A stretch of 45,740 bases of DNA, taken from a bacterium. Lineage in GTDB: Bacteria; Patescibacteriota; Minisyncoccia; UBA6257; JAGOQP01. The stretch's first letter is position 1. Each line of letters opens with the position of its first letter. Below, piece after piece: positions 26,990-45,740 of this stretch. A model generated the notes under the pieces. The model saw only the letters and a program-made list of their open reading frames with translations, was not told where the DNA came from and searched no databases. The translations under genes were made by a program, and so were the position numbers. The stretch lies in NCBI GenBank assembly GCA_021801825.1, contig JAJYXK010000013.1, forward strand, positions 1 through 45,740, read 5' to 3'.

Positions 26990-26990
26990 T

Positions 26991-27332: not shown

Positions 27333-27390
27333 CTATTTCATTTCTGTATAAATGATGCTATGCTTCATCTAGAACTAAACTGGAGTATAT

Positions 27391-27495: not shown

Positions 27496-27633
27496 TTGTG
27501 ATAATTATGAGGTGCCTTTTTTTGATTTCTTATTATAAAAATAAAATAACTCTTAAAGAGTCGTTTCTATTCAGTGGGTCTTATCCCTATTGTGCATCGG
27601 GATGACCTCGTTATGATGTTTATTTTTGAGTGT

Positions 27634-27729
27634 GTGGACTTGGTACGAAACCAGTGGAACGAAATATTGCGAGAATTGGCCGAATGGAATCAGCTCAAGA
27701 TCGCTGAAGCACTGCTTGCTACCAGATAA
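27634..27729 (+). other. left att junction with displaced recombinase C-terminal coding segment
   Basis: Start-less frame VDLVRNQWNEILRELAEWNQLKIAEALLATR* beginning at GTG GAC, same phase as V507-D508 of ORF 44101. Confidence 0.7.
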
Positions 27730-27793
27730 TGACAGTTTAGCCGATTTTTCCGAGTTTGTGAATGGAACTAACCGGACCCGAACTTAGCTCACC

Positions 27794-27922
27794 GATTTCT
27801 GCCCCGTGTTTGCCCCTTGGGCGAGCTTTGTACCAAGAGTAGACGTTTGATGCCATCCTTGACCGTAACCCACCGGTTTGACCAAAATCGAGAGCCTAAA
27901 AACGATTTGCTTAATTTAAGCA
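27794..27922 (+). repeat. degenerate ~130-bp direct repeat, copy 1
   Basis: GTTTGCCCC(T)TGGGCGAGC and CGATTTGCTTAA blocks, ~95 bp apart, recur at 35263-35399. Confidence 0.6.
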
Positions 27923-27938
27923 ATTCACATCGAGTGTT

Positions 27939-29867
27939 TTACTTAAACAATCGTAAACCATTTAAAATTACAAGGATCGCCACGCCAGTATCTGCGGCTA
28001 TTGCGATACCAAGATTCGATATGCCAAAGATTGCCAGGACGACAAAGGCTACTTTTGCGATAAGTGCCGCGGTTACGTTTTGTTTTACGACACGCAAAGA
28101 TTTGTGACCCAGTTCAACCACTTGGGGAATGTTTGAGATATTATCATTCATGAGAGCGATGTCGGCAGTCTCTATGGCGACATCTGAACCTTTAGTACCC
28201 ATAGCAATACCAACGTTTGAAAGCGCGAGCGATGGAGCATCATTCACACCGTCACCAACCATCGCAACCGAACCATATGTATCCCTAAGCATTTGAATTC
28301 TCTTAACCTTTTCATCAGGCAGAAGTGATCCGTATGCCTCCGATATGCCGAGTTCTTTTGCCACGTACGAAGCGGTGTGCTGGTTGTCGCCGGTTAGCAT
28401 TACTGTCTTTACGCCCAACTCACCTAATCGTTTGATCGTCTCTTTTGATCCGTCCCTAACTTTATCGGCGACAGCCAAAGCCCCCATGACCTGCTTTCCT
28501 TCACTTACCAAAATAAATGTTTTACCTTCTCGCTCCAGCATTTCTGTTTTTTCAATAATTTCTTCGGTAGATATTCCGTGAGCGTCCAATAGTTTCAGGT
28601 TTCCTACGCAATGATCAAGATCATCGCATACCATGCACGTCGCCCTGCCACCCTTACCTGCGATATTCGTATAGTTCTGCATGCTATGGGGATTGATACC
28701 TTTTTTTTTGGCAAAACTTAAAATGCTTTTGGCGAGGGGGTGCGATGAGAATTGTTCAAGACCGGCCGCATCCTCAAGTACCTGTTCTTCAGTAAAGCCG
28801 TTGAATGTGATCACGTTGGAAATATACGGTTCACCCAGCGTGAGCGTACCGGTCTTGTCAAAAGCGATTGCGCGTATTTTTTTCAATTCTTCCAGATGTT
28901 TACCGCCTTTGATAAGCACTCCTTTCTTCGACGCCCCACCGATTGCGGATGTTATGGTGACCGGTGTTGAAATGACCAGGGCACAAGGACAAGCAATAAC
29001 TAGGAGAGTAATGGCGCGTTCAAGCCAGACCAAAAACGGATCGCCAATCAAAATGGGCACGCCTGCTCCAATAATAACCGCAAGAAATACGATGGAGGGC
29101 GTGTAGTATTTTGCAAAACTATCTATAAACTCCTGTGTCGGGGCTTTGGCCTTTTGTGCCCGTTCGACGAGGGAGACTATTTTTGAAAAAGTCGAGTTTT
29201 TGCTTTCTTTGGTGACTTCGATTTCGAGATACCCGTTTTCGTTGAGTGTTCCGGCAAAGACACTGTCTCCCACACGCTTGTCTTTGGGTATCGACTCTCC
29301 GGTAATAGTCGCCTCGTTGACCGCAGAGAGGCCTTTAGTGACCTTTCCATCGAGCGGAATAAGTTCGCCTGGACGCACCGATACCACCTGTCCGACTTTT
29401 ACATCAGCGACCGGCAGATTTGTGCCGTTCAAAAGAGTCGCCGTCTGTGGAGATTTGCGCATTAAAGCTTGCAGTGCCCGGCGTGACCGATTAATCCCAT
29501 ATTCCTCGAATGCTTCGGCGAGAGAAAAGAAAAAGACGACCGCCGCCGCCTCAGGCAGTTCGTTTAAATAAATTGCGCCAGTGGAAGCAATAACAACCAG
29601 TGCGTCGATATTAAGAAATCTCTGTTTGGCAATGCCTCTCCATGCGCCTTTTACGACATAAATACCTCCGGAGAGGATGGCAAGGTAATAAATGGCATTT
29701 ATGATCGATGACGATATGGAAAAGAAACTCAAAATAAAGCCGAGGACAACACAAACCCCTGCCACCTTTGTAAGGACTTTTTTCCAATTGAATTGTGGCG
29801 TGACTATCGAGGTTGCATTCTCTCGATCGCAGTGATCACACGCATCGTTTTTTTCTTCTTTTTGCAT
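27939..29867 (-). CDS. heavy-metal P1B-type ATPase (ZntA/CadA-like)
   Basis: TGES, CPCAL, DKTGT, HP, GDGVNDAP. Confidence 0.93.
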   Translation of the reverse strand: MQKEEKNDACDHCDRENATSIVTPQFNWKKVLTKVAGVCVVLGFILSFFSISSSIINAIYYLAILSGGIYVVKGAWRGIAKQRFLNIDALVVIASTGAIYLNELPEAAAVVFFFSLAEAFEEYGINRSRRALQALMRKSPQTATLLNGTNLPVADVKVGQVVSVRPGELIPLDGKVTKGLSAVNEATITGESIPKDKRVGDSVFAGTLNENGYLEIEVTKESKNSTFSKIVSLVERAQKAKAPTQEFIDSFAKYYTPSIVFLAVIIGAGVPILIGDPFLVWLERAITLLVIACPCALVISTPVTITSAIGGASKKGVLIKGGKHLEELKKIRAIAFDKTGTLTLGEPYISNVITFNGFTEEQVLEDAAGLEQFSSHPLAKSILSFAKKKGINPHSMQNYTNIAGKGGRATCMVCDDLDHCVGNLKLLDAHGISTEEIIEKTEMLEREGKTFILVSEGKQVMGALAVADKVRDGSKETIKRLGELGVKTVMLTGDNQHTASYVAKELGISEAYGSLLPDEKVKRIQMLRDTYGSVAMVGDGVNDAPSLALSNVGIAMGTKGSDVAIETADIALMNDNISNIPQVVELGHKSLRVVKQNVTAALIAKVAFVVLAIFGISNLGIAIAADTGVAILVILNGLRLFK

Positions 29868-29871
29868 ATAG

Positions 29872-30042
29872 TTATTGTTTTAATTCAGCTGTGTATGCCT
29901 GCCCTGATACGGTCTTGTCTTCGGTCTTCTGGTTATTTTCTTTCGCTTTGGACATATACCAGCCAAAGACAAGAAACAACGCAAACAAAACTACCGTGAT
30001 CGCAGCCTTCTTTGGTTCTATTTTATCAGAATGTTGATGCAT
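29872..30042 (-). CDS. small single-TM protein (56 aa, not in ORF track)
   Basis: MHQHSDKIEPKKAAITVVLFALFLVFGWYMSK...ELKQ*; fills the operon gap exactly. Confidence 0.65.
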   Translation of the reverse strand: MHQHSDKIEPKKAAITVVLFALFLVFGWYMSKAKENNQKTEDKTVSGQAYTAELKQ

Positions 30043-30054
30043 ATGTTTTTAATA

Positions 30055-30750
30055 TCACACCCTTATTTCTTTAACATTATTATTCATAATCTTTGAAACC
30101 AGTCCTTGATAAATTATTTTTTTGATACCTTTCAGATTTGCGCCATGCTTGTTATAGAAGTCGTCGGGCGAATCAAAAATGCCGTAATCTTTTGCGATGC
30201 CCTCGCTCTGAATGAAAGTATCACATTCGTTCCACTTAATCTGCAGATTGTTAAAATCTTTCACATCAACACCGAATCCGCAAAAGGCCCCCTTGGCGTC
30301 TCTGAATTTTGACTTGAGACCTTTAAGATAACCAGCATCCAATATCAGTCCTTCCAGGCTGTACCATTTTTCATTGAAATAGACTTCAACCCAGCTGTGA
30401 ATGATTTCCTTCGGGGCAATGAAATAAGCAAGGCCGTTGATCAATCCTTTTTGCAGTCTTTTATGAATTGCAAATCCGTGGAACCTGCACGGAACTCCAA
30501 CAGCCCTTAGCAAGGCCATGAACAGCGTGCTCTTGGTATTACACTGGCCAAGTCCGTCTGCCAGTACATCTGAAGCTTTGATGTCGTCGGATTTATTGTA
30601 TCCGAACTGAACATCATTCTGTACATAATCATAAATCTTGGCGATCTTATTTTTTTGATCAAGGTTACGCCAGCCTTTCTGATCGATAAGATCAGAAATA
30701 GCCTTGCTCTCGAAATCAAGAATTTTTGTTTTCTGGATATACTTGTTCAT
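30055..30750 (-). CDS. transglutaminase-like protein
   Basis: GQCNTKS Cys and HSWVEV His motifs. Confidence 0.85.
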   Translation of the reverse strand: MNKYIQKTKILDFESKAISDLIDQKGWRNLDQKNKIAKIYDYVQNDVQFGYNKSDDIKASDVLADGLGQCNTKSTLFMALLRAVGVPCRFHGFAIHKRLQKGLINGLAYFIAPKEIIHSWVEVYFNEKWYSLEGLILDAGYLKGLKSKFRDAKGAFCGFGVDVKDFNNLQIKWNECDTFIQSEGIAKDYGIFDSPDDFYNKHGANLKGIKKIIYQGLVSKIMNNNVKEIRV

Positions 30751-30777
30751 AATTTTGCAAACTACTTAAGTACTAAA

Positions 30778-31542
30778 TTAACGCGTAGTCGACTTAGGCG
30801 CCTTAGAAATCGCAGATTGTATCAATGTCTTAAAATCTTCATAGCCGCGCGGATTTTCGATCTTCTCGCCATTCAGAAAAAATGAGGGCGTGCCCTGAAG
30901 ATTGAGTTTTTGTCCTGACCCGCGATCTCGTTCTATGCGGTCTTTTAATTCTTGCGATGCAATATCCTTGCCATACTGATCCATACCAAGTCCGATTTGT
31001 CGGGCGTAGTTTTCAAAAATCTTGGGATCAGGCGCCTGCTTTTCACCCCAGTCTCTCTGGTTCTCAAAAACAATATTATGCATCTCCCAATATTTTCCCT
31101 GTCGACCGGCCGCTTCCACGGCAAGTGCCGAGGTCATACTGTTTTTATGGCCTGGCAAGGGGAAATATCTGTTGATAAATCGTACTTCGTTGCCGAATTC
31201 TTCAGCTAAACGCTTCACGACAGGATAATACGCACCGCAAGCTTCGCATTCAAAATCAAGATATTCCACAACGGTAACGGGCGCATTTTTGTTTCCTTTT
31301 GTCCAATCATCTGCGACAGCTGTGAGCAATTCGCTGGTTGGAACTACCGGTCTGCCCGAGACGTACCAGAATATTCCGCCAATTGATCCAGCAATAATAA
31401 GTATGATCGCGAACCGTTTCGTCCACTTCTTTACTGCTTTCGACCGCTCCCGCACCTGTTCTTCTTTAGCTTTCTCTTGCTGCCGTAATTCTTTCCGCTC
31501 TCGCTTGGTAAGTATCTGGTTGTTTTGCTCGTTTGGTTCCAT
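30778..31542 (-). CDS. membrane-anchored DsbA-family thioredoxin
   Basis: TM anchor, DFECEAC, GTP cis-Pro loop. Confidence 0.9.
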   Translation of the reverse strand: MEPNEQNNQILTKRERKELRQQEKAKEEQVRERSKAVKKWTKRFAIILIIAGSIGGIFWYVSGRPVVPTSELLTAVADDWTKGNKNAPVTVVEYLDFECEACGAYYPVVKRLAEEFGNEVRFINRYFPLPGHKNSMTSALAVEAAGRQGKYWEMHNIVFENQRDWGEKQAPDPKIFENYARQIGLGMDQYGKDIASQELKDRIERDRGSGQKLNLQGTPSFFLNGEKIENPRGYEDFKTLIQSAISKAPKSTTR

Positions 31543-31564
31543 GATATATCAATTAATGCCAAAT

Positions 31565-32641
31565 TTATTTAATAAGTTTTTCCGGTCCGACTGCCCGGTC
31601 ATACCTTCTGCCGTCAAACATAATGGTGGGTATTTTTATCGTTTTTATCTTATCCTCTACGATCTCTTTTTGATTAGCCAAACTCAATCGTACTTCTTCC
31701 GAATTGGCCATTTGCCGTATCTTGTCCCGATCTTCTTTTGAATACCCGATGTCTGCCAACCACGAGAGAATCATATCCTCGGCCTCTGTCGAGGTGTAAA
31801 TCGTATTGAACTTGATTTGGTAAACAACATTATCAATATCTTTTCCGGTAAAGATTTTTTCCAGAATCTGCCAGTCTGCTGGCACGTTCGCCGAAGCCAA
31901 CGGAAAACGCTTTACCGCTTCTAAGTACGAAGCGACCATTTTTGAATGAGGAAAACGATATCCGTTTGCCTGTTTTGTATCGGGTATCGGGTATACCAAA
32001 TAGGTAAGGTTATATCTGTCGGCAAAGCCTGTGTCCTTGATGTTGCCGAACAGTTTGGCGCAAAATTTACAGCTTGGATCTACTATCTCAAGCGCAACAG
32101 TTTTACTAGAATCATAGGGTTTGTAGTAAGAATTTGATTCAGAGATAAATTCATTCGGATTCCATTCTTTGAATCGATTCGGAATCATTGTGATTGTTTC
32201 TCCAAGAGTAAGAACACCGTCTTTTGCCCAGGTGAATACTTGCCCTTCTTTCAGAGAAACCCAAAAGCTAGGTTTCCCAGAGTTTATTCCACACCCACCA
32301 CCGCCAAGTGAACATGATTCTGGGTTATTGGGGTTGCAAGTGTCATAAACTAAGAGATTGAGACCGCTGTTCAATACTATAAGAAGGCTCCACACGCTTA
32401 GAATTACAAAAACCGAAGCAAAAACCCCGATCCAGCGGTCGAGGAATCTGGCCAAACGCGGTTTGGTGATAATGAATCTTCTCAAAAGTTTGGCCTTGGC
32501 TTCTTCCTGAAAATTAATATCGCACGGCCTGAAGGTCATTTTTCGAAGCGTACACTTCCATGCTTTCTTCGCCAAAGACCGGTAGCTGGCCGAAAAGACG
32601 CCAAGGATTGCAAAAATGATAAATGCCGCAATGCAAAACAT
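31565..32641 (-). CDS. membrane protein with thioredoxin-like CxxC domain
   Basis: N-terminal TMs, Cys-rich linker, DPSCKFC, KIPTIMF. Confidence 0.7.
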   Translation of the reverse strand: MFCIAAFIIFAILGVFSASYRSLAKKAWKCTLRKMTFRPCDINFQEEAKAKLLRRFIITKPRLARFLDRWIGVFASVFVILSVWSLLIVLNSGLNLLVYDTCNPNNPESCSLGGGGCGINSGKPSFWVSLKEGQVFTWAKDGVLTLGETITMIPNRFKEWNPNEFISESNSYYKPYDSSKTVALEIVDPSCKFCAKLFGNIKDTGFADRYNLTYLVYPIPDTKQANGYRFPHSKMVASYLEAVKRFPLASANVPADWQILEKIFTGKDIDNVVYQIKFNTIYTSTEAEDMILSWLADIGYSKEDRDKIRQMANSEEVRLSLANQKEIVEDKIKTIKIPTIMFDGRRYDRAVGPEKLIK

Positions 32642-32644
32642 GTT

Positions 32645-33841
32645 CTATGAGTTAGCTATGATTGTTTGTAGGGTTTTTACGAATGATTCGACCTGTTCTT
32701 TCGTGTTGTTGAGACCAAGGGAAACTCGCACCAGGGGTGGATATTTTTTTAGATTCTTCAGATAATAGTGACAGCAGAAATAACCACTCCTCACCATCAT
32801 TTTTTGTGCGGAGAGGAAAATGGCCAGCCTATGAGAGTCAATCTTCTCCGAGTAGAAACTTAAGATCAGACTTGGGGAATTGTTTATAAGTTTCAATGAT
32901 GGAATGCGAGACATTTCTTCGAATAGGAATTGTGCAAGCTCTTCTTGATGAACATACGCAGGCATACCTTCAGGCTTGTAGCTTTTAAGCCAATCCAAGG
33001 ATGCTCCTAAACCTATGATGCCCGCGAAATTCTGCAGACCAATTTCCAGCCGACTACTCAAGTCGTCCGGATCGGATATGAGCTGGAAACTTTCAGCTTC
33101 TACATCTTCCACCATGCCCCCGCCTATGAACCCGATGTCGAGCAAAGTCAGAAGGGATTTTTTGATAACAATTACTCCAATACTGGGACCGTACATCTTG
33201 TGGCCGGAAAAGAACAATGCGTCAAAATCGCTTTCACGTATTACTTTCTGGTCATGGCTCATGCTTTGAGCGGCATCAACAAGCACTATTCCGCCCGTTT
33301 TGTGGACATCAGAGGCGATTTCTTTCAGATTAGTCAGCTCACGTCCATCAATGTTGGACATGCTGTTTAGAACCACGATCGCACCCGCGACATCTTCTTT
33401 GTCATACGACAGCGATCCGTCGTCTCTACGCTCTAAGAGGACGCGTGGAATGTTCAGTCTTTTTGCGACGCTGATAGTCGGTAGAAAAACTGAATTGTGC
33501 TCGATGTCCGAAGTTATAATTTTCGTGAATTTCGGTGGCAACTGACCGAGTACCAAATTCAGGCCATATGTGGTGTTAAGCGTAAACGCCACCGCATATT
33601 CGGAAGCTGATTTACCTACGAAAGCGAGTACTTTCTTTCTCGTCTCTTTTATTTTTTCATCCAACTTTACGCCCCAGTCGTATTTTACCCGTCCTCCACA
33701 AGAATTGTATTCGTGGTAATACTCCGACATCGCATCTATTACTTGCTCCGGACGCAATGTTTGGCAAGCCGAATCAAGATAGACAGTCTTACTGTCCAGA
33801 TATGAGAAGTCGAATGGGTTTTTATTTACTGATGATTGCAT
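32645..33841 (-). CDS. SufS-like cysteine desulfurase (class V PLP enzyme)
   Basis: YLDSAC, EHNS, DAAQ, SGHKM, RSGYFCCH; start at MQSS. Confidence 0.85.
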   Translation of the reverse strand: MQSSVNKNPFDFSYLDSKTVYLDSACQTLRPEQVIDAMSEYYHEYNSCGGRVKYDWGVKLDEKIKETRKKVLAFVGKSASEYAVAFTLNTTYGLNLVLGQLPPKFTKIITSDIEHNSVFLPTISVAKRLNIPRVLLERRDDGSLSYDKEDVAGAIVVLNSMSNIDGRELTNLKEIASDVHKTGGIVLVDAAQSMSHDQKVIRESDFDALFFSGHKMYGPSIGVIVIKKSLLTLLDIGFIGGGMVEDVEAESFQLISDPDDLSSRLEIGLQNFAGIIGLGASLDWLKSYKPEGMPAYVHQEELAQFLFEEMSRIPSLKLINNSPSLILSFYSEKIDSHRLAIFLSAQKMMVRSGYFCCHYYLKNLKKYPPLVRVSLGLNNTKEQVESFVKTLQTIIANS

Positions 33842-33843
33842 AA

Positions 33844-34638
33844 TTATTTTTCCTGCAACGCTTGCTCGATGAGTGCTTTCACTGAAGCGTAAGGCTGAGC
33901 ACCGTTTAGAGGGTACTTCTTGCCATTCTTGGCGACCACGATACTCCATGGCGTGCCATTGCCTCCCGTCGCTTGCGCGTTTTGAGCATCCTGCTCAACA
34001 TGCTGGGCGTACTTTCCACTATTTAAACAGGTGTTAAATTTGTTCACGTTGAGACCGACATATTGGGCGATTTTTGGAAGCTCTGCCGAATCAAGGCCGT
34101 TATTGGATGGCGTGACTTCATAGAGCCGATCAGTATACGCCCAGAATTTCTCCGATCCGCCTAATTCATTGGCGCACTCCAAAGCCTCCGCTTCTTTGGA
34201 AGCCTTGGTGTGCAGTTGTACTAACGGGAACTGGCGGTAAACCCATGCCACCTTGCCGCTTTTGCCATACTCATCCATGACTTGCTTCATGGTGTCATGG
34301 AAGCGTTTGCAGAACGGGCACTCGGTGTCCGAGTATTCTACGATATTAACCGGCGCATCCGGATTGCCGCGGATATGATCTTTTGCCGAGATTGCGGCCA
34401 TTTGATCTAGCGATCCGATGTCTTCCTGCGGAATTTGCTGATTCGCAATCTTATTATTCGCATTGTTCCCCGATACAGTCGGGGTAGCAGAATTTTTCCC
34501 TGACGAGTAAATTACTGCGCCAGCGATCAGCGCTCCGGCCACGACAATAGCCAAAGGAACCATGTATTTACTTGTTTGCGAAGAGATGACTTTGAGTTGT
34601 GATGATTCCGCTTCGTGATGTTGATGTTCTTCAGTCAT
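33844..34638 (-). CDS. membrane-anchored DsbA-family protein
   Basis: EYSDTECPFC, GTP, GAQP. Confidence 0.92.
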   Translation of the reverse strand: MTEEHQHHEAESSQLKVISSQTSKYMVPLAIVVAGALIAGAVIYSSGKNSATPTVSGNNANNKIANQQIPQEDIGSLDQMAAISAKDHIRGNPDAPVNIVEYSDTECPFCKRFHDTMKQVMDEYGKSGKVAWVYRQFPLVQLHTKASKEAEALECANELGGSEKFWAYTDRLYEVTPSNNGLDSAELPKIAQYVGLNVNKFNTCLNSGKYAQHVEQDAQNAQATGGNGTPWSIVVAKNGKKYPLNGAQPYASVKALIEQALQEK

Positions 34639-34671
34639 ATTTATAGTATTTATGGATTATTAATGAAATAC

Positions 34672-34730
34672 AAATAAAATAAACCGGCATTGAGACCAAA
34701 CCCGTATGCCAAAATACGGATCAGTGCCGG
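34672..34730 (-). terminator. terminator/attenuator-like hairpin
   Basis: Minus strand CCGGCACTGA...CCGTAT/ATACGG...TCAATGCCGG followed by TTTATTTT. Confidence 0.55.
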
Positions 34731-34742
34731 CTAAAAAATAGG

Positions 34743-35147
34743 TTAGTAAATTTTTGGGTTGAGAATTCCTTGCGCGAATGCAAGCTTCAGGTGATTGAAT
34801 AAAGAGAGTTCTGGATTTTGTATGTTATAAACATGTCCTATCGATGTGCCCTGAATATCAGATTTATTTCTTAAGCCCGACCCGAACACTACAACTAACA
34901 ACAATATGAATAGCAGAGAAATGACAGTAGAAACATTGGGTAAGGTTGTAGCAAGTATCTGCAGGGAACTTATATGTTCATAAACGGTTGGGCAACCTGT
35001 CTGTGCCTCGCTTATAGGACACTGGGTGGTTTGAGTCTTAAAATGATAGATCGTTTCTACCGATCCCCAGGAACAAGCAATACTAATAACGAAAGTTATT
35101 AGGACTAAAAAGAAAGCAAGTGATTTTATATGTTTGGCGATTCCCAT
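34743..35147 (-). CDS. small membrane protein heading the metal/redox operon
   Basis: Two hydrophobic segments, Cys/His loop, C-terminal FAQGILNPKIY. Confidence 0.7.
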   Translation of the reverse strand: MGIAKHIKSLAFFLVLITFVISIACSWGSVETIYHFKTQTTQCPISEAQTGCPTVYEHISSLQILATTLPNVSTVISLLFILLLVVVFGSGLRNKSDIQGTSIGHVYNIQNPELSLFNHLKLAFAQGILNPKIY

Positions 35148-35262
35148 AGATTCTAAAATTTTAGCATAATTTATGCCCTTTAGGAAATTATCTATTATTA
35201 TTAAAACTTGTAGCTAGTAGCTTGAGGGTACTGCTCGCTGAATACAAAGAAGAATAACCCAG

Positions 35263-35399
35263 ATTTGCCATTTGTTTGCCCCTGGGGCGAGCGGTTGAGC
35301 CGAGGTGAGAGATTTGCACCGATCAGAAGCCCGAACCGAACGTAAACCATTTTTGCGACCGTAATGCGATTTGCTTAACTTTTCAAAAGTTAAGCAAAT
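35263..35399 (+). repeat. degenerate direct repeat, copy 2, ending in a 31-bp palindrome
   Basis: GTTTGCCCCTGGGGCGAGC ... ATTTGCTTAACTTTT-C-AAAAGTTAAGCAAAT (35369-35399). Confidence 0.6.
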
Positions 35400-35418
35400 T
35401 ATCACGAGTCATATTTGC

Positions 35419-35624
35419 TTAACCCTTTTCCTTTTTCGGCTCGGACATTAAATCAAAAATCTTTTTAGTCTCATTGATAATTTTTTCTCGCAATTTAATA
35501 TCTATAATCGCTCGCTCTAATACCTCCATAGCGTTTGATCCATCAATACCGTTTTGCTTGATTACTCTCGCAAGGTTAATATAGGCCACAAAGGCAAACC
35601 GCACGTACTCCTTATGCTTATATA
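35419..35624 (-). pseudogene. 3' fragment of IS-interrupted HEPN gene
   Basis: Removing the IS and one TATATA restores ...DFDLLY-KHKEYVRF... in frame. Confidence 0.85.
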
Positions 35625-39311: not shown

Positions 39312-39339
39312 TTCTCATTAACTTAGATCTACGCTTCTC

Positions 39340-40137
39340 TTAAAGAATAACGGTCACTTTTTCATACAACATTGGCCAGCTATCCTGACGCATTCTAAAT
39401 TTGGTACCGTGATTATGACCACTGCGAGCATCGAAGTCGACGAGAATCTTTGCTTCTTCAATTGCTTTCAAAAATCCCTCAAAGCTGAACTTTTGAAGCA
39501 TCATAACCTTATTGTATTTGTAATATTCTTTTCCTCGGACTGTTTTGACTTCTGCCTGAACATAAAAACTATTCAAAAGTTTTGTACCGGCCTTATGTTC
39601 AAGATCATCAAAACCCCAATATGGCTGTGGATTAAGTTCGCCAAGTCCTACTCGTTCCTTTACCGCCTTAAGCCATTCGGCGTGTCGGATATCCACGCTC
39701 TTCGCATCAAAAGATATTAAGACTTTCTTTTCGGTCCGATCGATCTTTACCATAAAACCACGATCACTACGTGTAAGACCATGAATAGTCTGTCTAAAAC
39801 TCATCTCACCTTTTGGATATTTCTTTCCATCTTCCTGATGTGCCCAGCCATACTTTGGTAAAAGGACTTGTGGCACAAAACGAATAGCTCTAGGGGAGGG
39901 CTCAATGTGAAATAAAGTACAAAGAGAAGTTGAATTCAATCGTTGGGCTTTTAGTTCCCATTCGGCTGCATTTGGTATGGGTAAATTGTTTTCTTTGATT
40001 CCGAGTAAGTCCTCGAGAGTATTCCCGATACCGCCATGATTGCCCTTGCGAGCATTAGGAACCCACCCCATATTTGCAATCTCTTTTAATTTTTCAATGA
40101 GGGCCGGCTTTGTGTAAATTTTTGGTTTGTTTGGCAT
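39340..40137 (-). CDS. MvaI/BcnI family restriction endonuclease
   Basis: GIGNTLEDLLGIKENN, ELKAQR, HNHGTKFR. Confidence 0.88.
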   Translation of the reverse strand: MPNKPKIYTKPALIEKLKEIANMGWVPNARKGNHGGIGNTLEDLLGIKENNLPIPNAAEWELKAQRLNSTSLCTLFHIEPSPRAIRFVPQVLLPKYGWAHQEDGKKYPKGEMSFRQTIHGLTRSDRGFMVKIDRTEKKVLISFDAKSVDIRHAEWLKAVKERVGLGELNPQPYWGFDDLEHKAGTKLLNSFYVQAEVKTVRGKEYYKYNKVMMLQKFSFEGFLKAIEEAKILVDFDARSGHNHGTKFRMRQDSWPMLYEKVTVIL

Positions 40138-40141
40138 ATGT

Positions 40142-40948
40142 TTATAAAAGTTTTTGTTGAGCTTTATGATTTTTAATTCTTTTCTTGGCCATCTCGCAAT
40201 ATTCCGGCGAAAGGTCGATACCGATATAATGCCGGTTAAAATTTATAGCAGAAAGTGCGGTAGTGCCTGAACCCATAAATGGGTCCAGAATAATTTTTGC
40301 ATTTGTAGACGACACAATACGATCTATAAGATTTACAGGGAAAGCGGCCGGATGTTCGTTATTCATCTCCTGGGTAAATTCCCATACGTCACCGTGGCCA
40401 CTTGCCTTAGGTGATAATTTAAACTTAGGTTTGGCGATAAGATAGATCACTTCGTATGTCGGCACGAAGTAACCAGGATTAAAATTAAAACCGCCCTTTC
40501 TTCTCCAAATTATTATCTGGCGCACAGGAAAGCCACTTACAATATCCTGCCGATCCTGCAAAACACCTCCTTGTACTCGCCACTTGTGATTATAAAAAAT
40601 TGCGCCATCTTCGGGGATAATTCTCATCATCTCCGTTAAGCATTCACGTTGCCATTTCACATACTCATCATGAGGCATGCAATCGTCGTGATGTGAATAT
40701 CCATTTTGAAGAGCCGCATTTGCCCACTTACCCTTACTACCATTTTTCATTCCGTTACCAGTAGAGTTTTTGAGATTATATGGAGGTGAGGTCACTATCA
40801 AATCAACCGAACCATCGGGTATTTTTTTCATAATATCAACCGCGTTACCGCAGATGATTTTATTTAAAAAGTGATTAGGGTATTCTAACTTCATAACTTT
40901 GGATTTAATAGGACTCGTTTTGGTTCTTGTTTTTACTTGAGTTTCCAT
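40142..40948 (-). CDS. beta-class N4-C/N6-A DNA methyltransferase
   Basis: TSPPY before DPFMGSGTT; HPAAFP. Confidence 0.92.
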   Translation of the reverse strand: METQVKTRTKTSPIKSKVMKLEYPNHFLNKIICGNAVDIMKKIPDGSVDLIVTSPPYNLKNSTGNGMKNGSKGKWANAALQNGYSHHDDCMPHDEYVKWQRECLTEMMRIIPEDGAIFYNHKWRVQGGVLQDRQDIVSGFPVRQIIIWRRKGGFNFNPGYFVPTYEVIYLIAKPKFKLSPKASGHGDVWEFTQEMNNEHPAAFPVNLIDRIVSSTNAKIILDPFMGSGTTALSAINFNRHYIGIDLSPEYCEMAKKRIKNHKAQQKLL

Positions 40949-40949
40949 A

Positions 40950-41153
40950 TTATTTTGAATGCTTTTCATTTTTCTTTTTTACATTACTCGTCTCCTCAAG
41001 AAAGGCATTGAGATCGGATTGCTTGATCCGCCAAACGCCCAATTTAGACGCTTTTAACCTGCCGGACTCGATGTAGCGAGTAACTGTGCGAGTATGTACT
41101 CTCAAAATTTCGGCAATTTCCTCAATGGTGAAAAGTTTTTCTATTTCGTTCAT
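40950..41153 (-). CDS. excisionase-family helix-turn-helix protein
   Basis: FTIEEIAEILRVHTRTV..YI..G.LKA.K.G.WRI. Confidence 0.85.
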   Translation of the reverse strand: MNEIEKLFTIEEIAEILRVHTRTVTRYIESGRLKASKLGVWRIKQSDLNAFLEETSNVKKKNEKHSK

Positions 41154-41253
41154 AAAAATAAAATTAGTCGTTGATGCCATTTTACCGCTTCCGTATTCCA
41201 TTGTCAAAATAGTCGTATTTTGTCATAATACACTTATAGCTAATCTGATAAAG

Positions 41254-41361
41254 TTTAGTGAATGGGAGATGCAAAATGGGTCCGATTCACTAAATTTTCC
41301 GATTTTGCATAGTTTACATACTGTACTATGCAAAAAAGGGACTTTTCGCATAGTACAGTAT
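41254..41361. promoter_or_regulatory. cluster of inverted repeats between divergent genes
   Basis: TTTAGTGAAT/ATTCACTAAA; TTTTGCATAGT/ACTATGCAAAA; ATACTGTACTATGC/GCATAGTACAGTAT. Confidence 0.65.
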
Positions 41362-41417
41362 AGTAAAAAAGGAAAAGTGAACTGGAAGTAATGATTAGGA
41401 TTACATCCAGTTAAAAA

Positions 41418-42104
41418 ATGAGTATGAAAATGAAAAAGGTCGCCAAGACTACCAGCTACAAATTTAATATAAGGAAACCGGTAGATTTTATGTCAACTTA
41501 CCGATTATCTGTAGCCACCACTGAAAAGATTTTGCGATCATCGATGAAATCTTCTGGTATATCTGACGGCGACCAGATCATAAAGCGCAATCAACCAGCG
41601 ATTGGGCTTCTTACCAAAGAAATTATAGAAACCAAACTCGAGGTAAAAAGTATCCGGTCCCTCTTGGAACGCAGAACGAGCAAGTTTGAGGGACTGACTG
41701 AATACGACCAGCATTTTATAAACACATTTGCCAAAGTAGCCGCTATTTCTTTCGCTGAATATTTTTCTCAAGGCAAAATCAAACCTGTTGAATTAAACCA
41801 GACAATTCTCCACTTGTCGGCCGAAGCCGATCTGTACCGTGATCCAAAAAGTAAGTACTGCTACCCTATGGGTAAAGAACAGTCTCGCCATCAAATAATT
41901 AAATATCTGATCGGCAAAGGGTATCAGGCCACATCAGATATCCGCATGGCTACCAGTGCCAAAAGCGACTCATCCGTCCGTTCTGCGATCATGAAAATAA
42001 ATGCCAAAGCCAAGCACGACCTAGAAATAGAGGAGAAATTGATTGAGGGCCGTCGCACTGATGGTTATCGCATCAATCCAGAATATAGAATTTTCTTGAA
42101 GTGA
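41418..42104 (+). CDS. hypothetical protein, probable C-terminal winged HTH
   Basis: 'SVRSAIMKIN...IEGRRTDGYRIN' resembles a wHTH wing. Confidence 0.55.
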   Translation: MSMKMKKVAKTTSYKFNIRKPVDFMSTYRLSVATTEKILRSSMKSSGISDGDQIIKRNQPAIGLLTKEIIETKLEVKSIRSLLERRTSKFEGLTEYDQHFINTFAKVAAISFAEYFSQGKIKPVELNQTILHLSAEADLYRDPKSKYCYPMGKEQSRHQIIKYLIGKGYQATSDIRMATSAKSDSSVRSAIMKINAKAKHDLEIEEKLIEGRRTDGYRINPEYRIFLK

Positions 42105-42141
42105 CGCTCGTAGTCCCCAAGTAATGTTAATAACTTTCCCG

Positions 42142-42167
42142 AAACGCTCACAAAATGAGCGTTTTTT
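42142..42167 (+). terminator. intrinsic terminator
   Basis: AAACGCTCA-CAAAA-TGAGCGTTTTTT. Confidence 0.75.
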
Positions 42168-42231
42168 GTTTGCCAAAATTTCTCTGTGGACTATTTAAGG
42201 CATAGCGGGTCGTTCGCTACGATAAACACAT

Positions 42232-42447
42232 ATGTTAAGCGTAGAGCGAGTCAAACAATTAGCGAACGACCCCACTCTCTCTGATAAACAAATCGAGGAA
42301 ATCAGAGACGGCTTTTATATGCTCTCGCAAGTGATTTTTGAACAGTGGCAAGCTGAAAGAAATAAAGCCAAAGAAGCCGAGCAAAAAGATAATAAGGAAA
42401 TTAATAACCAAAATGAATATGAAAAACCAATCGGACAACAGCAATAA
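42232..42447 (+). CDS. small hypothetical protein
   Basis: Open frame at the head of the rep operon. Confidence 0.65.
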   Translation: MLSVERVKQLANDPTLSDKQIEEIRDGFYMLSQVIFEQWQAERNKAKEAEQKDNKEINNQNEYEKPIGQQQ

Positions 42448-42679
42448 TTTTATCACCAGTGACTTCTATGTAGCCGCTTTCTTGCTTGCCAGCAAATATA
42501 AGCTTGTCGGCATAAACAAAACTGATGTTCGTCGGTTTCGTTTTGTTTTTGTTGATCAGCCGGGACGGGTTCAATTCGTGGAAGGATATTTTTTGGGCTT
42601 TGTCGACGTGAACGTTAAAGAGTTTGTCTCGGCGATCAAGGAACTTAAATCGCTGATGTATAACGACGCGATCGGTTGA
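42413..42679 (+). CDS. DUF5659-like small protein
   Basis: 'TSDFYVAAFL...FRFVF...IKELKS' pattern, recognised from memory. Confidence 0.6.
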   Translation: MNMKNQSDNSNNFITSDFYVAAFLLASKYKLVGINKTDVRRFRFVFVDQPGRVQFVEGYFLGFVDVNVKEFVSAIKELKSLMYNDAIG

Positions 42680-42698
42680 AAATAACTGAATATGAAAT

Positions 42699-43472
42699 AT
42701 GGAAAATCTGCCATTCGAAATAGATAACAATGATTACGTAAAGCTTCCCAGAAGCATCAAGACCGCCCTTGTGGACGGCTATTTGAGTTTTGAGGAATAC
42801 TCGGTCCTCGTCTGGTTGTGGATCAATGCCAATCCCCGGATTGGCAAAGCCCACGTAAGCTACGCCGGACTTTCCAAGGATTTCAAGGAAAAATATTCCA
42901 AAAATCATATCAATCGACTGATGTTGAACCTGAAGCGAAAGAAGTGGATATGGTTTCCGGTACAACAAGGTCGCAGAAGTTCGTTCCATGTTGATATCGC
43001 CAATTATCCTTTATCTAACGGCGGTTTTGTAGAGCTTGAGAAGCGTATCAAACAGAAGTCCGGCAGAAGTGAGAGCGATATTGATAAGCAATTACCAGCA
43101 GAAGTACCTACAGAAGTCAGTGACATTCGGCAGAAGTTGGAAAGCGACAGAAACACTTTAGTGGATAGGTTTTCTTTCGGTTCGGAAAGTTCGCTCGGCA
43201 GAAGTTCCAAGAACGACAACGAAAATGAAAATAAAAACAAACGATCGAATCGTGGTCGACCCGTAAGAGAGTTCACTCCCAAGTCTTACGAGGAACAGAA
43301 ATGCTGGGAGATTGCCCAAGATCTGGGAGAAAAAGATATGACATTCATCCTATCGGCTCTCAAGAAATACGGACTGACAATAATTGAGGAAGCTTACCGG
43401 TCCGTCATGGATCAGCCGGATAATAAAATCCGAAGTCGAGGTGCTTATTTTAATCGTTTAATGAATCTCTAA
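42699..43472 (+). CDS. phage-like replication initiator
   Basis: N-terminal HTH-like region, low-complexity linker with DNA repeats, C-terminal 'RSRGAYFN'. Confidence 0.6.
   Translation: MENLPFEIDNNDYVKLPRSIKTALVDGYLSFEEYSVLVWLWINANPRIGKAHVSYAGLSKDFKEKYSKNHINRLMLNLKRKKWIWFPVQQGRRSSFHVDIANYPLSNGGFVELEKRIKQKSGRSESDIDKQLPAEVPTEVSDIRQKLESDRNTLVDRFSFGSESSLGRSSKNDNENENKNKRSNRGRPVREFTPKSYEEQKCWEIAQDLGEKDMTFILSALKKYGLTIIEEAYRSVMDQPDNKIRSRGAYFNRLMNL
42974..43241 (+). repeat. iteron-like CAGAAGT repeats plus A-rich tract (putative ori)
   Basis: CAGAAGT at 42974, 43053, 43064, 43099, 43111, 43131, 43199. Confidence 0.65.
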
Positions 43473-43473
43473 C

Positions 43474-43971
43474 ATGCCTAAACTCACTTACTTAAGACCA
43501 AAACATAAACGAGCCATAGAAATGAAATGGCAGGGTTCTCAGTACAAAGAAATTGCCAACGAGGTTGGAGTCTCGATTGATACGGTTAAATTCTGGTTTA
43601 GAGCGAATGGGTTTTTGAGAGAATCCTATAACACATACAGAGGCGAGCAAATTCTAAACAGGGACGTTCAGGAAAAACAAGAAAGAATAAAAGCACTTAC
43701 TGGCAATGGTTTGCCACAAAGCGCAACGAATATCATAGATTCTCTAAGTCTGCCGATCCGCAAAATGTTCCAGAAGCTACCGGCGAAAGAAAAAGATGCG
43801 GTGATGGAACGATTTTATGAATTGACTCGGGAGTCCGAGGAGAGAATGAATAACTACACTAAACGGCACCAACTCACACCAAATGACACCAAAAATGAGA
43901 AAGAAATAAATACACTTAGACCAGATAATGCCCAAAATAAGCCACCGGACCGAGCAAAATCATGCGAATAA
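43474..43971 (+). CDS. HTH-domain protein
   Basis: 'GSQYKEIANEVGVSIDTVKFW'. Confidence 0.7.
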   Translation: MPKLTYLRPKHKRAIEMKWQGSQYKEIANEVGVSIDTVKFWFRANGFLRESYNTYRGEQILNRDVQEKQERIKALTGNGLPQSATNIIDSLSLPIRKMFQKLPAKEKDAVMERFYELTRESEERMNNYTKRHQLTPNDTKNEKEINTLRPDNAQNKPPDRAKSCE

Positions 43972-44100
43972 CTACACTTAAATGCAACAAAATGCAGTTA
44001 AATACAACGTTTGAGCAGAAAATCCGAGCTGTGGGCAACTCGAGCTTAGCTTGTTCCACAAAATAGCGTATGTTGTGTGTTGAGAAATCTCTGAGAAAAT

Positions 44101-45681
44101 ATGATGAAAGGAATTATTTACACAAGAGTATCAAGCGACGAACAGGTCAAAGGCACCTCGCTGGAACACCAAGAGGAACTTTGCCGGAAATACTGCAAGG
44201 ACAAAGGCATTGAAGTTGACGTGGTTTTCCGTGAGGAAGGCGAAAGTGCCAAAGACCTGAGCTTACAGAACCGCAAAAAGTTTCTGGAAGCTCTCGAATT
44301 CTGTCGCAAGAACAAAGACAAGGTCCAAGCCTTCGTCGTTTTGCGTGTAGATAGATTTGCCCGTAATGCCGATGACCATTTTGCTATCAGAAAAATCCTG
44401 GCGACATACGGCACAACATTGCATTCAGTCACCGAACCAATCGGAAACGAGCCGGTGGCTAAGCTCTTGGAAACATTTCTTGCTGGCATTGCTGAATTTG
44501 ATAACGCTATCAGAAAACAAAGATGCAGTGACGGCATGTTGGCCAGAATCAATCAAGGCATTTATCCGTGGAAACCGCCGATTGGCTATAAGTGCGTCAA
44601 CTTCAAAAAGCACGGCGAGAAAAAGACCCACGCCGATCCACCGCACGAGCAGATATTCCCGATCATTCAAAGAGGACTGAAAGAATTTGCCCAAGGTCTG
44701 CACTCGCAAAGCGAGCTGATGAGAAAACTGGACGAATGGGGTCTCAAGGATTTAACCGGAAAGAAAAGCACTCCTCAGCTCGTAAGCCGATTAGTAACCA
44801 ACTATCTGAAATTTTATGCCGGCATAATTACCAATCCGTGGACAGGCAAAGATATTGAGGGCCAGCATATTCCGATGATTACCAAGGACGAGATGTATCA
44901 AATCAAAATGATCCTGACCGGTAAAAAGAGACTGGTGGCAAAATACAACATCTTCAACCCAGACTTTCCGCTGAGACGAACCGTGACCTGTGCCGTTTGT
45001 GGACGACCACTGACCGGAAGCGCGCCTCGAGGTGGGATGGGAGGACGATATAACTATTATCACTGCGGAAATAAGAATTGCTGTGTGTTTGGCAAAAGCA
45101 CACCCAAACTGGAACTGGAAAAGATGTTTTTTGAATATTTAGAGAGAGTTACTCCAAAACAAGCGTTTCTCGATATCTTCAAGGAAAGCGTGATCGATAT
45201 TTGGAAAGAGAAAGGCCAGAGATTTGAAATGGAAGCCGAGAAGTGGAAAAAGAAACTGGAAACGCTCGAGGCAAAGAAAAAACGCATCTACGAAATGCGT
45301 GAGGACGGTTCTTATACCAAAGAGGAGTTTGTGGAACGAAAAGATGAAATTGAAAACGAAATATCGACTACCAGAATATTATCAAACGAAGCCCGGATCG
45401 AGCAGTTTGATATTGAAGGATCAATCATTTATGCGACCAAGTTCATAAGCAATCTCGGCCGGCAATGGTTTGATCTTGTGCCACACTTACAGCCCAAGTT
45501 CCAGAAACTGGTCTTCCCGGAAGGAATACCGTTTGAATGGAAAAAAGGATTTGGAACTGCCAAATTAGCAGTCATTTACGAGATGAATCGGGAATTCTCG
45601 ACTGAAAATTCTGCTTTGGTGGACCGTAGGAGATTCGAACTCCTGACCTCGTCATTGCAAATGACGCGCTCTACCAACTAA
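44101..45681 (+). CDS. large serine recombinase (integrase)
   Basis: YTRVSS catalytic Ser, DRFAR, recombinase domain, zinc ribbon CAVC...YYHC, coiled coil; last ~20 codons are antisense tRNA. Confidence 0.95.
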   Translation: MMKGIIYTRVSSDEQVKGTSLEHQEELCRKYCKDKGIEVDVVFREEGESAKDLSLQNRKKFLEALEFCRKNKDKVQAFVVLRVDRFARNADDHFAIRKILATYGTTLHSVTEPIGNEPVAKLLETFLAGIAEFDNAIRKQRCSDGMLARINQGIYPWKPPIGYKCVNFKKHGEKKTHADPPHEQIFPIIQRGLKEFAQGLHSQSELMRKLDEWGLKDLTGKKSTPQLVSRLVTNYLKFYAGIITNPWTGKDIEGQHIPMITKDEMYQIKMILTGKKRLVAKYNIFNPDFPLRRTVTCAVCGRPLTGSAPRGGMGGRYNYYHCGNKNCCVFGKSTPKLELEKMFFEYLERVTPKQAFLDIFKESVIDIWKEKGQRFEMEAEKWKKKLETLEAKKKRIYEMREDGSYTKEEFVERKDEIENEISTTRILSNEARIEQFDIEGSIIYATKFISNLGRQWFDLVPHLQPKFQKLVFPEGIPFEWKKGFGTAKLAVIYEMNREFSTENSALVDRRRFELLTSSLQMTRSTN

Positions 45682-45692
45682 GCTAACGGCCC
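45617..45692 (-). tRNA. tRNA-Ala(TGC)
   Basis: GGGCCGTT...TTTGCAA...TTCGAATC...ACGGTCCACCA; G3:U70 alanine determinant. Confidence 0.95.
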
Positions 45693-45740
45693 ATATTAAA
45701 TTTTGTAAAGATCATCGGTCTCGCCTCTCGTCGTGCCGTC

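Follow-up and report, generated by a model that had tools for sequence, protein, structure and literature searches.

A tRNA-targeting genomic island whose serine integrase gene appears to contain its own attachment site and to exchange its 3' end on integration

The window, meaning the whole 45,740-nucleotide stretch of DNA analysed, comes from a tiny-genome bacterium of the candidate-phyla-radiation (CPR) type, with a whole genome of 654 kb. Comparison with same-genus genomes shows that positions 27634-45618 read as an integrated genomic island of ~18 kb, inserted into the 3' end of tRNA-Ala(tgc) by its own serine integrase. From the two junctions we infer that the attP of the element lies inside the integrase ORF, at codons L-V-D, which are antisense to the tRNA end ...G-U-C-C-A73-C74(-C-A). 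It is highly probable that an island of this kind, with an attP-in-ORF exchange of the integrase tail, is the right explanation of the locus. In this mechanism, the integrase made from the circular element would be 537 aa long, and its C-terminus would be a conserved amphipathic helix of the WNQIIxELxxWQxL type. Integration would move the helix-coding segment 18 kb, to the far end of the island, and would fuse the integrase to 20 tRNA-antisense codons, giving a 526-aa protein with a predicted disordered tail. Which integrase isoform is produced would be decided by the state of the element's DNA itself. The features are as follows.

27584-27615, minus strand: degenerate tRNA-Ala 3'-half remnant, in the chromosomal flank just outside the island
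27634-45618, no strand assigned: integrated island of ~18 kb, missing between the same flanks in three same-genus genomes
27634-27639, plus strand: distal junction (attL-type) core GTGGAC, with chromosomal flank to the left and element DNA to the right
27634-27729, plus strand: start-less orphan frame, the putative displaced integrase C-terminus, consisting of VD, LVRNQWNEILRELAEWNQLKIAEALLATR and a stop, matched by the tail HMM
40950-41207, minus strand: excisionase-like or MerR-like HTH ORF of 85 aa, upstream of the methylase (phrog_66, E 1.9e-12; phrog_2907, E 9.5e-9)
43474-43971, plus strand: HTH DNA-binding protein of 165 aa, directly 5' of the integrase (Sigma70_r4_2, 1.8e-7; phrog_4151, 1.7e-7)
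44101-45681, plus strand: large serine integrase in its integrated form, 526 aa, with residues 1-506 element-encoded and 507-526 from tRNA antisense
45617-45692, minus strand: tRNA-Ala(tgc), the integration target, called by ARAGORN
45619-45624, plus strand: proximal junction (attR-type) core GTGGAC, inside integrase codons V507-D508 and antisense to tRNA positions 69-74
Island cargo, first group: P-type ATPase, transglutaminase-like protein, two DsbA-like thioredoxins and class-V aminotransferase
Island cargo, second group: IS DDE transposase, DUF4209 protein, MvaI/BcnI restriction-modification pair, HTH proteins and the integrase

The integrase C-terminus reads SALVDRRRFELLTSSLQMTRSTN before the stop codon. 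A first-pass annotation of this DNA had described this tail as the antisense of tRNA-Ala, and the last 20 codons (507-526) are indeed antisense to the ARAGORN-called tRNA-Ala(tgc), with the final 65 nt of the ORF complementary to the tRNA. The resolvase-type catalytic domain PF00239 matched residues 5-153 (E 7.2e-27), and Y7, R9, V10 and S11 are invariant across 38 sequences in an alignment of integrase homologues. PF13408 matched with E 3.4e-5 at 24.6 bits, just below the 25.3 cut-off, and C297, C300, C322 and C327 are invariant in the homologue alignment. PF07508 gave no match in the query integrase and is recorded for some homologues. In an AlphaFold2 model of a helix-type homologue, P0006, long paired helices span residues 351-398 and 404-428, as a coiled-coil inserted in the zinc-ribbon domain. 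Foldseek matched the full-length structures of the SprA, Bxb1 and phiC31 integrases (E 3e-18 to 2e-12), and phmmer matches include Bxb1, SprA, 3guv and the TP901-1 catalytic domains. By domain and fold the product is thus classed as a large serine recombinase, for which attP x attB activity is predicted. All recognised domains lie within residues 1-506, which integration leaves intact.

At the far end of the island, the frame read from 27634 gives VDLVRNQWNEILRELAEWNQLKIAEALLATR followed by a stop. A tail HMM of 27 positions was built from the tails of 46 helix-type homologues, with the shared SxLVx excluded, and was searched against 25,669 six-frame segments of the genome. It returned one significant match, at C5 plus strand 27550-27726 (E 4.5e-4, 20.1 bits, inclusion level), followed genome-wide by a segment with E 0.35. 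The match is in frame with GTGGAC, immediately 3' of the core and on the same strand as the integrase, and its 20.1 bits place it near the bottom of the orphan tails, the others scoring 19-41 bits. The start-less VD frame proposed to open at a GTGGAC core 18 kb from the recombinase is therefore borne out, since GTGGAC at 27634-27639 opens an in-frame tail. A search of the 31-aa tail against serine recombinase C-termini, which had been suggested as a check, found it homologous to the C-termini of related serine recombinases and the one significant HMM match in the genome; the proposed 537 aa of the circular form follows by arithmetic (506 + 31 = 537). The P' arm of attP also falls within 27634-27729, including a TGGAAC at 27655-27660.

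The first pass had cautioned that the 6-bp core would by itself be weak evidence, and this is so: the window contains 14 copies of GTGGAC where 10.8 would be expected, and at least 14 copies were found in 23 of 100 shuffles. A direct-repeat search of the tRNA against the window found nothing longer than the 6-bp core, as expected of a serine integrase. The shared core is 6 bp long at this locus, five other loci have cores of 6-9 bp, and the common overlap is limited to tRNA positions 74-71. All 45 of 45 tRNA-overlapping loci have an in-frame GT codon no more than a few bases from the called tRNA 3' end; in 44 of these the GT is at the A73-C74 offset (+2 where CCA is encoded, 0 where it is not), and the one exception, L036, is off by one. 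V507 is invariant in both alignments. Crossover therefore probably takes place at the GT dinucleotide opposite tRNA A73-C74, here 27634-27635. No convincing inverted repeat of TGGAAC was seen by eye in the P arm of attP.

The junctions were compared with an unoccupied site. G001, a genome of the same genus, has ~1.5 kb between its tRNA-binding-protein gene and tRNA-Ala(tgc), with no part of the 18 kb there, and the 18 kb is also absent between the same flanks in G002 and G003. Left of GTGGAC, the G001 site matches the left flank of the window at 28/38 positions and the integrase side at 14/34; right of GTGGAC, it matches the tRNA at 33/33 and the tail side at 12/24. The empty site, which the first pass had named as a check, thus switches in this relative from left flank to tRNA exactly at the predicted GTGGAC junction. 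The same degenerate tRNA-Ala 3'-half remnant is present in G001, downstream of its unoccupied tRNA-Ala. Taken with the tail homology and the tRNA-antisense tail, the G001 junction upholds the earlier proposal that the att core lies inside the recombinase ORF and that integration exchanges the C-terminus. The encoded C75-A76 of tRNA-Ala(tgc) (45617-45618) is element-derived, and the encoded CCA end of this gene results from integration; most tRNA genes of the same genome have no encoded CCA end.

Logan contigs from four public runs of two studies, which are possible source samples, were aligned to 26800-45740. The distal junction is spanned by contigs of X1, X5 and X6. Neither a joint of 45624 to 27640 (circle) nor a skip of 27634-45618 (empty site) was present among the contigs of these four runs; since contigs drop rare variants, this absence weighs neither for nor against such junctions. 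Loose contig ends before 45614 and 45628 resemble tRNA-Ala genes of other organisms.

To place the integrase in its family, the tails of 121 proteins (the query and 120 homologues) were typed: 66 are tRNA-antisense, 46 are helix and 9 are truncated or other. Of 80 related loci, 45 have a minus-strand tRNA that overlaps the 3' end of the integrase gene, the overlapping tRNAs being for Ala, Lys, Glu, Met, Ile, Arg, Leu or Tyr and comprising at least 12 isoacceptor types. An orphan tail upstream on the integrase strand was found in 13 of the 80 loci, within flanks limited to 10 kb (E 2e-3 to 2e-9). A second family member in the same genome (C11 5967-4414) overlaps tRNA-Glu(ctc), and two tail-like frames, 'VTQVGENWNQI..', lie on its own strand 7-8 kb away. 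Tail arrays occur in loci L046 and L043, and the same-genus genome G003 contains an orphan tail with no integrase. On a tree made without the tails, the tail states are interleaved: at least 17 changes are needed over the 112 rows, starred branches force 13 of these, and sister pairs differ in tail state at ~0.1 substitutions. MAGs from outside the CPR (Omnitrophota, Ignavibacteria, Delta- and Alphaproteobacteria) also contain helix-type integrases; these lie on contigs of 100-790 kb and lack a tRNA at the 3' end, so an attP inside the ORF may not extend to every lineage. Among IMG/VR viral contigs, the best relative is only ~30% identical, with no sign there of a phage-borne family.

The motif of the 27634 tail is common to 31 other tails. 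E13 is conserved in 32/32, L14 in 31/32 (with six different codons) and W17 in 31/32, and the second positions of codons 13, 14, 17 and 20 have a nucleotide diversity of 0.04, versus 0.44 for their third positions. As a codon statistic, this pattern shows protein-level selection on the helix. Asparagine 8 is encoded by AAC in 30/31 tails, giving TGGAAC at +22 to +27; part of the tail conservation is thus at the DNA level, and TGGAAC is probably a binding motif of the P' arm.

In the P0006 model the tail is helical at 511-531 (pLDDT 76-80), and the crossover codons fall in a low-confidence linker before it. The window's own 526-aa protein was modelled with no secondary structure over residues 493-526, where pLDDT stays below 50, and the tRNA-encoded tail itself, at pLDDT 29-46, is predicted to be disordered. 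Complex prediction of tail 499-532 with residues 285-498 of the same protein scored 0.61 (best of three controls, 0.01), a level reached by 58/80 solved complexes and 2/110 mismatched pairs, although the weight of this test is limited because two parts of one polypeptide tend to pass. Agreement between runs is 87% of contacts or better, and the partner has a pLDDT of 76 or more. The predicted contacts, at 356-364, 433-445, 460-467 and 487-496, comprise the two coiled-coil ends and the neighbouring zinc-domain helices; the helix is thus predicted to dock at the coiled-coil base, where directionality factors bind. The prediction shows the tail modelled as part of the fold, and not a regulatory role. 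Helix 407-450 is continuous in the tail-less model and broken at 429-434 in the model with the tail, a difference from which no direction is drawn because the models come from different sequences and alignments. This difference resembles that described between the SPbeta integrase without and with its factor (PMC11722253).

Four interpretations of the displaced frame and the exchanged tail were weighed. The first pass had read the exchange as a putative self-encoded directionality or stability switch, with added antisense silencing from the convergent tRNA; for the switch, selection on the helix at the protein level and its predicted docking give indirect support. We give roughly even weight to the helix being a cis-acting regulatory piece at the coiled-coil base, in which case the isoforms would differ in recombination activity or directionality. 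A tentative and rather unlikely extension is that the clade is a natural self-toggling recombinase, in which the helix form integrates and the helix-less form is excision-competent or locked. If so, the DNA state would record the direction and make a second, dedicated factor unnecessary, the helix would exert in cis, at the same site, the action that directionality factors exert in trans, and the tail arrays in L046 would mean that small cassettes are captured, in integron-like fashion, at the 3' end of the integrase gene itself. The exchange could instead be a neutral by-product of attP overlapping the integrase 3' end in compact genomes, with the helix aiding folding or DNA binding, the integrated form somewhat weaker and direction set by a separate factor, like that of other serine integrases. 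The island offers candidates for such a factor in the HTH ORF adjoining the integrase and in the excisionase-like ORF 40950-41207; the latter may be a directionality factor or a restriction-modification controller, so a separate conventional directionality factor may exist. The TGGAAC motif, which accounts for part of the tail conservation, and the position of the crossover codons in a low-confidence linker also fit a by-product. Such an origin is nonetheless hard to square with the protein-coding constraint on the distal helix well past a typical half-site, with a helix modelled as packed on the coiled-coil base and not dangling, and with an arrangement kept in at least 45 loci and 12 tRNA isoacceptor types; we consider it fairly unlikely.

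A still less probable reading is that the swap mainly sets the amount of integrase and not its direction, through a degron tail, pairing of the mRNA with tRNA-Ala or collision of convergent transcription. The predicted disorder of the integrated-form tail and the 65-nt complementarity to the tRNA are compatible with it, as are the degradation tags on integrases and repressors described for mycobacteriophage integration-dependent immunity (PMC8092301); the tRNA-encoded tails, however, vary with the target tRNA, so no common degron is evident. Finally, the 27634 frame might be the last remnant of a second, decayed integrase gene, with the left end of the island elsewhere. Orphan tails without an integrase do exist, as in G003, and so do tail arrays, but no integrase homology lies upstream of 27634, tblastn of the integrase found no further fragment in contig C5, the full 18 kb is missing between the same flanks in the three relatives, and the DNA upstream of 27634 is homologous to the G001 sequence downstream of its unoccupied tRNA-Ala, switching at GTGGAC. 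The G001 flank homology and the absent integrase fragments largely refute this reading, which we regard as very improbable.

The island with an attP-in-ORF tail exchange remains our preferred explanation. Large DNA is inserted into genomes mainly with serine integrases, and how their direction is set is the central question about them. The homologues form a large environmental clade of serine integrases, whose targets are tRNA 3' ends of at least 12 isoacceptor types. Because attP would lie inside the integrase's own gene, every insertion would remove the conserved C-terminal helix, providing a natural isoform pair for testing how the coiled-coil hinge sets direction; the clade may also point to reversible integrases that work without a second protein. 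The analysis further identifies a common kind of genomic island in CPR genomes, and such islands would explain the encoded CCA on a few CPR tRNA genes.

Myxophage Mx8 targets a tRNA gene. The ORFs of the Mx8 and SSV tyrosine integrases span attP (PMC4383910, PMC6070905). For Mx8 IntP, attP is placed in the int coding sequence; the gene recombined by integration acquires a new 3' end, and its product is changed but not lost (PMC6070905, PMC4383910). The island integrase is alike in having attP inside its ORF and gaining a new gene 3' end on integration; unlike the tyrosine recombinase of Mx8 (PMC4383910), it belongs to the large serine recombinases, its core measures 6 bp and its crossover is probably 2 bp, and the segment displaced from it is a short helix, modelled at the base of the coiled-coil. 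In 'suicidal' archaeal integrases of the SSV type, the recombination site is likewise inside the ORF and integration disrupts the gene (PMC7253208, PMC4383910). These tyrosine recombinases have their gene split in two parts, whereas only the last 31 residues of the island integrase would be exchanged. On sequence grounds the island integrase works like the Mx8 and SSV types, with the site in the ORF, but belongs to neither, being serine and not tyrosine. Mycobacteriophage integration-dependent immunity is described as a further case in which integration at an attP within a gene changes the C-terminus and behaviour of the protein (PMC8092301); there, a repressor gene is rewritten by a tyrosine integrase with removal of a degradation tag, whereas here the rewritten gene is that of the integrase itself, and no repressor gene was found across either junction among the ORFs.

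Directionality factors act at the coiled-coil base of serine integrases, and the SPbeta factor helix that packs there is reported to be essential (PMC11722253). The serine integrases described in PMC8092301 integrate within, and disrupt, protein-coding genes, and a 2015 account stated that serine integrases were not known to target tRNA genes (PMC4383910). Our literature search, which covered few subscription journals, returned no report of a serine integrase with tRNA 3' ends as its target, nor of one by which its own C-terminus is rewritten. To our knowledge, the canonical large serine integrases (Bxb1, phiC31, SprA) have attP outside the integrase ORF. The island enzyme shares with Bxb1, phiC31 and SPbeta SprA the same domain order and fold and a short common core, and the central dinucleotide of Bxb1 is also GT, according to a structure entry title. 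It differs from these canonical enzymes in targeting a tRNA 3' end and in the predicted loss of its C-terminal helix on integration.

The 654-kb genome, of CPR size, is assembled in 24 contigs, and the window is the whole of contig C5. The island's integrase end carries two overlapping features:

44101-45681, plus strand, integrase open reading frame, 526 aa
45617-45692, minus strand, tRNA-Ala(tgc), called by ARAGORN with CCA included

The product of 44101-45681 is a large serine integrase, based on a resolvase catalytic domain (PF00239, E 7.2e-27) and a recombinase zinc ribbon (PF13408, E 3.4e-5, slightly below the cut-off), sequence matches to the Bxb1 and SPbeta SprA integrases, and fold matches between the model of a close homologue and the full-length SprA, Bxb1 and phiC31 integrase structures (E 3e-18 to 2e-12). 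Residues 507-526, VDRRRFELLTSSLQMTRSTN, are encoded by the antisense of tRNA-Ala(tgc), and the codons TTG-GTG-GAC (L-V-D) are the antisense of tRNA positions 69-76, GUCCACCA. A second GTGGAC at 27634 begins a start-less frame, VDLVRNQWNEILRELAEWNQLKIAEALLATR, that runs to a stop codon. Checked by tRNA calling and translation of the reading frames, both observations were correct as written in the first-pass annotation. Contig C16, the continuation of C5 according to synteny in the same-genus genome G002, overlaps C5 by exactly 127 bases (window 45614-45740 = C16:1-127). The start of this overlap, 3 bases ahead of the tRNA 3' end, suggests that the assembly graph branches at the tRNA. In the public sequencing run X5, loose contig ends before 45614 resemble the tRNA-Ala genes of other organisms.

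By itself the 6-bp core is within chance, with 14 occurrences of GTGGAC in the window for 10.8 expected, and no longer direct repeat joining the tRNA end to the rest of the window was found. The best 120 homologues and the query (121 proteins) are alike as far as ...KSxLV(D), followed by two kinds of end: 66 have tails such as ..GIEP.. or ..FELLTSSLQ..RSTN, which among the fetched loci are encoded by tRNA antisense strands, and 46 end in a conserved helix, xxRxxWNQIIxELxxWQxL, the remaining 9 being truncated or atypical. With the 46 helix tails, minus the shared SxLVx, as a profile, a scan of all 25,669 six-frame segments in the genome gave a single significant match, C5 + 27550-27726 (E 4.5e-4; runner-up E 0.35), on the integrase strand, immediately after GTGGAC and in frame with it. 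By this sequence comparison the tail at 27634 exceeds chance, bearing out the proposal that the start-less frame is a protein-like tail related to integrase C-termini.

Three same-genus genomes (G001, G002 and G003) share the left-flank genes (ABC transporter, malate/lactate dehydrogenase, tRNA-Pro, tRNA-binding-domain protein) and the right-flank genes (tRNA-Ala(tgc), tRNA-Gly, genes of C16), and the entire 18 kb is missing in 3/3. Left of GTGGAC, the G001 tRNA 3' end agrees with the window's left flank at 28/38 positions versus 14/34 for the integrase side; right of the core it agrees with the window tRNA at 33/33 positions versus 12/24 for the tail side. G001 switches identity at the predicted GTGGAC junction, so the first refuting condition named in the first-pass annotation, an empty site that maps elsewhere, does not apply. 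A degenerate tRNA-Ala 3'-half remnant is common to both flanks (window and G001). This copy, directly downstream of the target, is intact-looking in G001 (L094 4972-5031) and degenerate in the window (27584-27615), as if it were a relic of an older integration of a different kind.

Excision would leave a tRNA-Ala gene ending ...GTCCAC/ACAC, without CCA. The same CCA-less end is found in the genome's other tRNA-Ala (ggc) and in most of its tRNA genes, of which ARAGORN called 49 with Ala-tgc included twice owing to the contig overlap. CCA is encoded in only four distinct tRNA genes, of which Ala-tgc and Glu-ctc are fused to family integrases, and Val-cac and Ala-cgc have no adjoining integrase. 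Since two of the four are those fused to family integrases, the encoded CCA (window 45617-45619) is donated by the element. At the corresponding G003 locus, L096, an orphan tail frame FMVDFTIINWNQFITELTEWQKL (~7920-8070, E 2.8e-10) and the same tRNA-Ala(tgc), here without encoded CCA, are 1.9 kb apart with no integrase in between; the element at this shared site has decayed or is devoid of an integrase.

The island also carries a complete MvaI/BcnI-type restriction-modification pair (39340-40969), a 605-aa DUF4209 protein (37494-39311) and an IS DDE transposase (35699-36502). Its left third (27.9-34.6 kb), with a P-type ATPase, two DsbA-like proteins and a cysteine-desulfurase-like aminotransferase, has a higher G+C content (0.44-0.46 versus 0.35-0.41). 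A 36-nt direct repeat (78% identical) occurs near the island's left end (27791-27826) and directly upstream of the transposase (35257-35292).

Among 80 related loci from species-representative genomes, mainly Patescibacteria MAGs with flanks limited to 10 kb, the integrase 3' end is overlapped by a minus-strand tRNA in 45, further loci being interrupted by contig ends. The targets are Ala-tgc, -cgc, -ggc, Lys, Glu, Met, Ile, Arg, Leu and Tyr tRNAs, and 33/45 encode CCA. In 45/45 the called tRNA 3' end has an in-frame GT codon no more than a few bases away, and in 44 this codon is at the offset expected for A73-C74 (L036 is off by one). In 13/80 loci the 10-kb flanks hold an orphan helix-coding frame, located 4-10 kb upstream of the integrase and on its strand. 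The bases shared by the two junctions, GTGGAC (window, L038), TGGTAG (L022, L027), TGGTGC (L023) and TGGTGACCC (L063), overlap at tRNA positions 74-71, and V507 is invariant in the alignments; we therefore infer from sequence that the crossover dinucleotide is the GT opposite A73-C74. The genome itself holds a second family member on contig C11 (5967-4414, 518 aa, 38% identical), ending ...LVTPMGFEPMFQE over a tRNA-Glu(ctc):

4375-4451, C11, tRNA-Glu(ctc)
12690-12803 and 13446-13568, C11, second integrase's strand, 7-8 kb away, tail-like frames 'VTQVGENWNQI..'

The shared core is GTGACCC, and the frames have weak profile E-values of 0.35 and 0.38.

In a tree built without the tails, helix and tRNA states interleave: the 112 rows require 17 changes or more, of which well-supported branches force 13, and the two members of sister pairs such as P0106/P0120 and P0038/P0041 do not share a tail state. 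The pattern agrees with a single kind of element that has two states, not with two subfamilies. Helix-type integrases also occur in non-CPR MAGs (Omnitrophota, Ignavibacteria, Delta- and Alphaproteobacteria, Bacteroidetes), where the contigs reach 790 kb and no tRNA was found at the integrase 3' ends. The first-pass reading of an att core inside the recombinase ORF, with exchange of the C-terminus, is supported by the empty site, the 45/80 tRNA overlaps and the 13/80 orphan tails, both in the window and in a large clade centred on CPR bacteria. This support does not extend to the non-CPR helix-type copies.

In L046 (10001-16500; identical in L047), four further orphan tail frames lie downstream of a helix-type integrase:

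12462, 13907, 15046 and 16395, L046, integrase strand, orphan tail frames

A conserved hairpin-like stretch and the core GTGGTC come before every one of them. Between one frame and the next is a unit of 1.1-1.4 kb that contains a conserved small ORF (MLTLEQ...) and, on the minus strand, an ORF that varies. The arrangement resembles an integron-like cassette array assembled at the 3' end of the integrase gene itself. An array of tails occurs in L043 as well (11504 and 17005).

The helix is conserved both as DNA and as protein. Asn 8 is encoded by AAC in 30/31 tails, and the resulting TGGAAC (+22 to +27, counted from the GT) is probably a P'-arm binding motif. Constraint at the protein level is indicated by Leu 14, present in 31/32 tails through six different codons, by E13 (32/32) and W17 (31/32), and by codons 13, 14, 17 and 20, where diversity is 0.04 at second versus 0.44 at third positions; codons 2-6 are without that contrast. 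In the model of P0006, a helix-type homologue 71% identical to the query (alignment of 46, mean pLDDT 78.7), the crossover codons fall in a low-confidence linker (495-508) and the tail is a helix (511-531, pLDDT 76-80). Residues 493-526 of the window protein (alignment of 38) are modelled as unstructured, with pLDDT below 50. Complex prediction of tail 499-532 with residues 285-498 scored 0.61, a mark attained by 58/80 solved complexes and 2/110 mismatched pairs, versus 0.01 for the best of three controls; the partners here are two pieces of one chain, and such pairs tend to pass. Contact agreement among runs was at least 87%, and partner pLDDT at least 76. The tail is predicted to touch the coiled-coil where it leaves (356-364) and where it returns (433-445), as well as residues 460-467 and 487-496. 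All that this prediction says is that the tail is modelled as belonging to the fold at the base of the coiled-coil.

From the integrated anatomy, empty site, family pattern and helix constraint established here, a cycle can be proposed. The circular element would encode the 537-aa integrase, and insertion would proceed by recombination at the GT within codon V507 with the tRNA 3' end, leaving a gene ending in tRNA antisense and the helix-coding piece at the island's other end; excision would restore the helix end. A regulatory role for this swap is plausible. The C-terminal helix of the SPbeta factor, which packs with the zinc domain on one side and the inter-hinge segment on the other, is described as essential (PMC11722253), and on this precedent we consider it an even call whether helix loss would alter direction or activity. 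Alternatively, the swap may be a neutral by-product while a separate factor sets direction, a view favoured by an excisionase-like HTH ORF in the island, or it may control how much integrase is present, by way of the disordered tail or of tRNA antisense.

Integrases extending across attP are known from Mx8 and SSV, both treated as tyrosine integrases in PMC4383910. SSV-type genes are described as split on integration (PMC7253208), and Mx8 integration gives int a new 3' end, the enzyme reportedly being modified, not inactivated (PMC6070905). No published description of a serine integrase targeting tRNA 3' ends or rewriting its own end was found in the literature, of which coverage was incomplete. 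The window integrase works like Mx8 IntP, yet belongs to the large serine recombinases.
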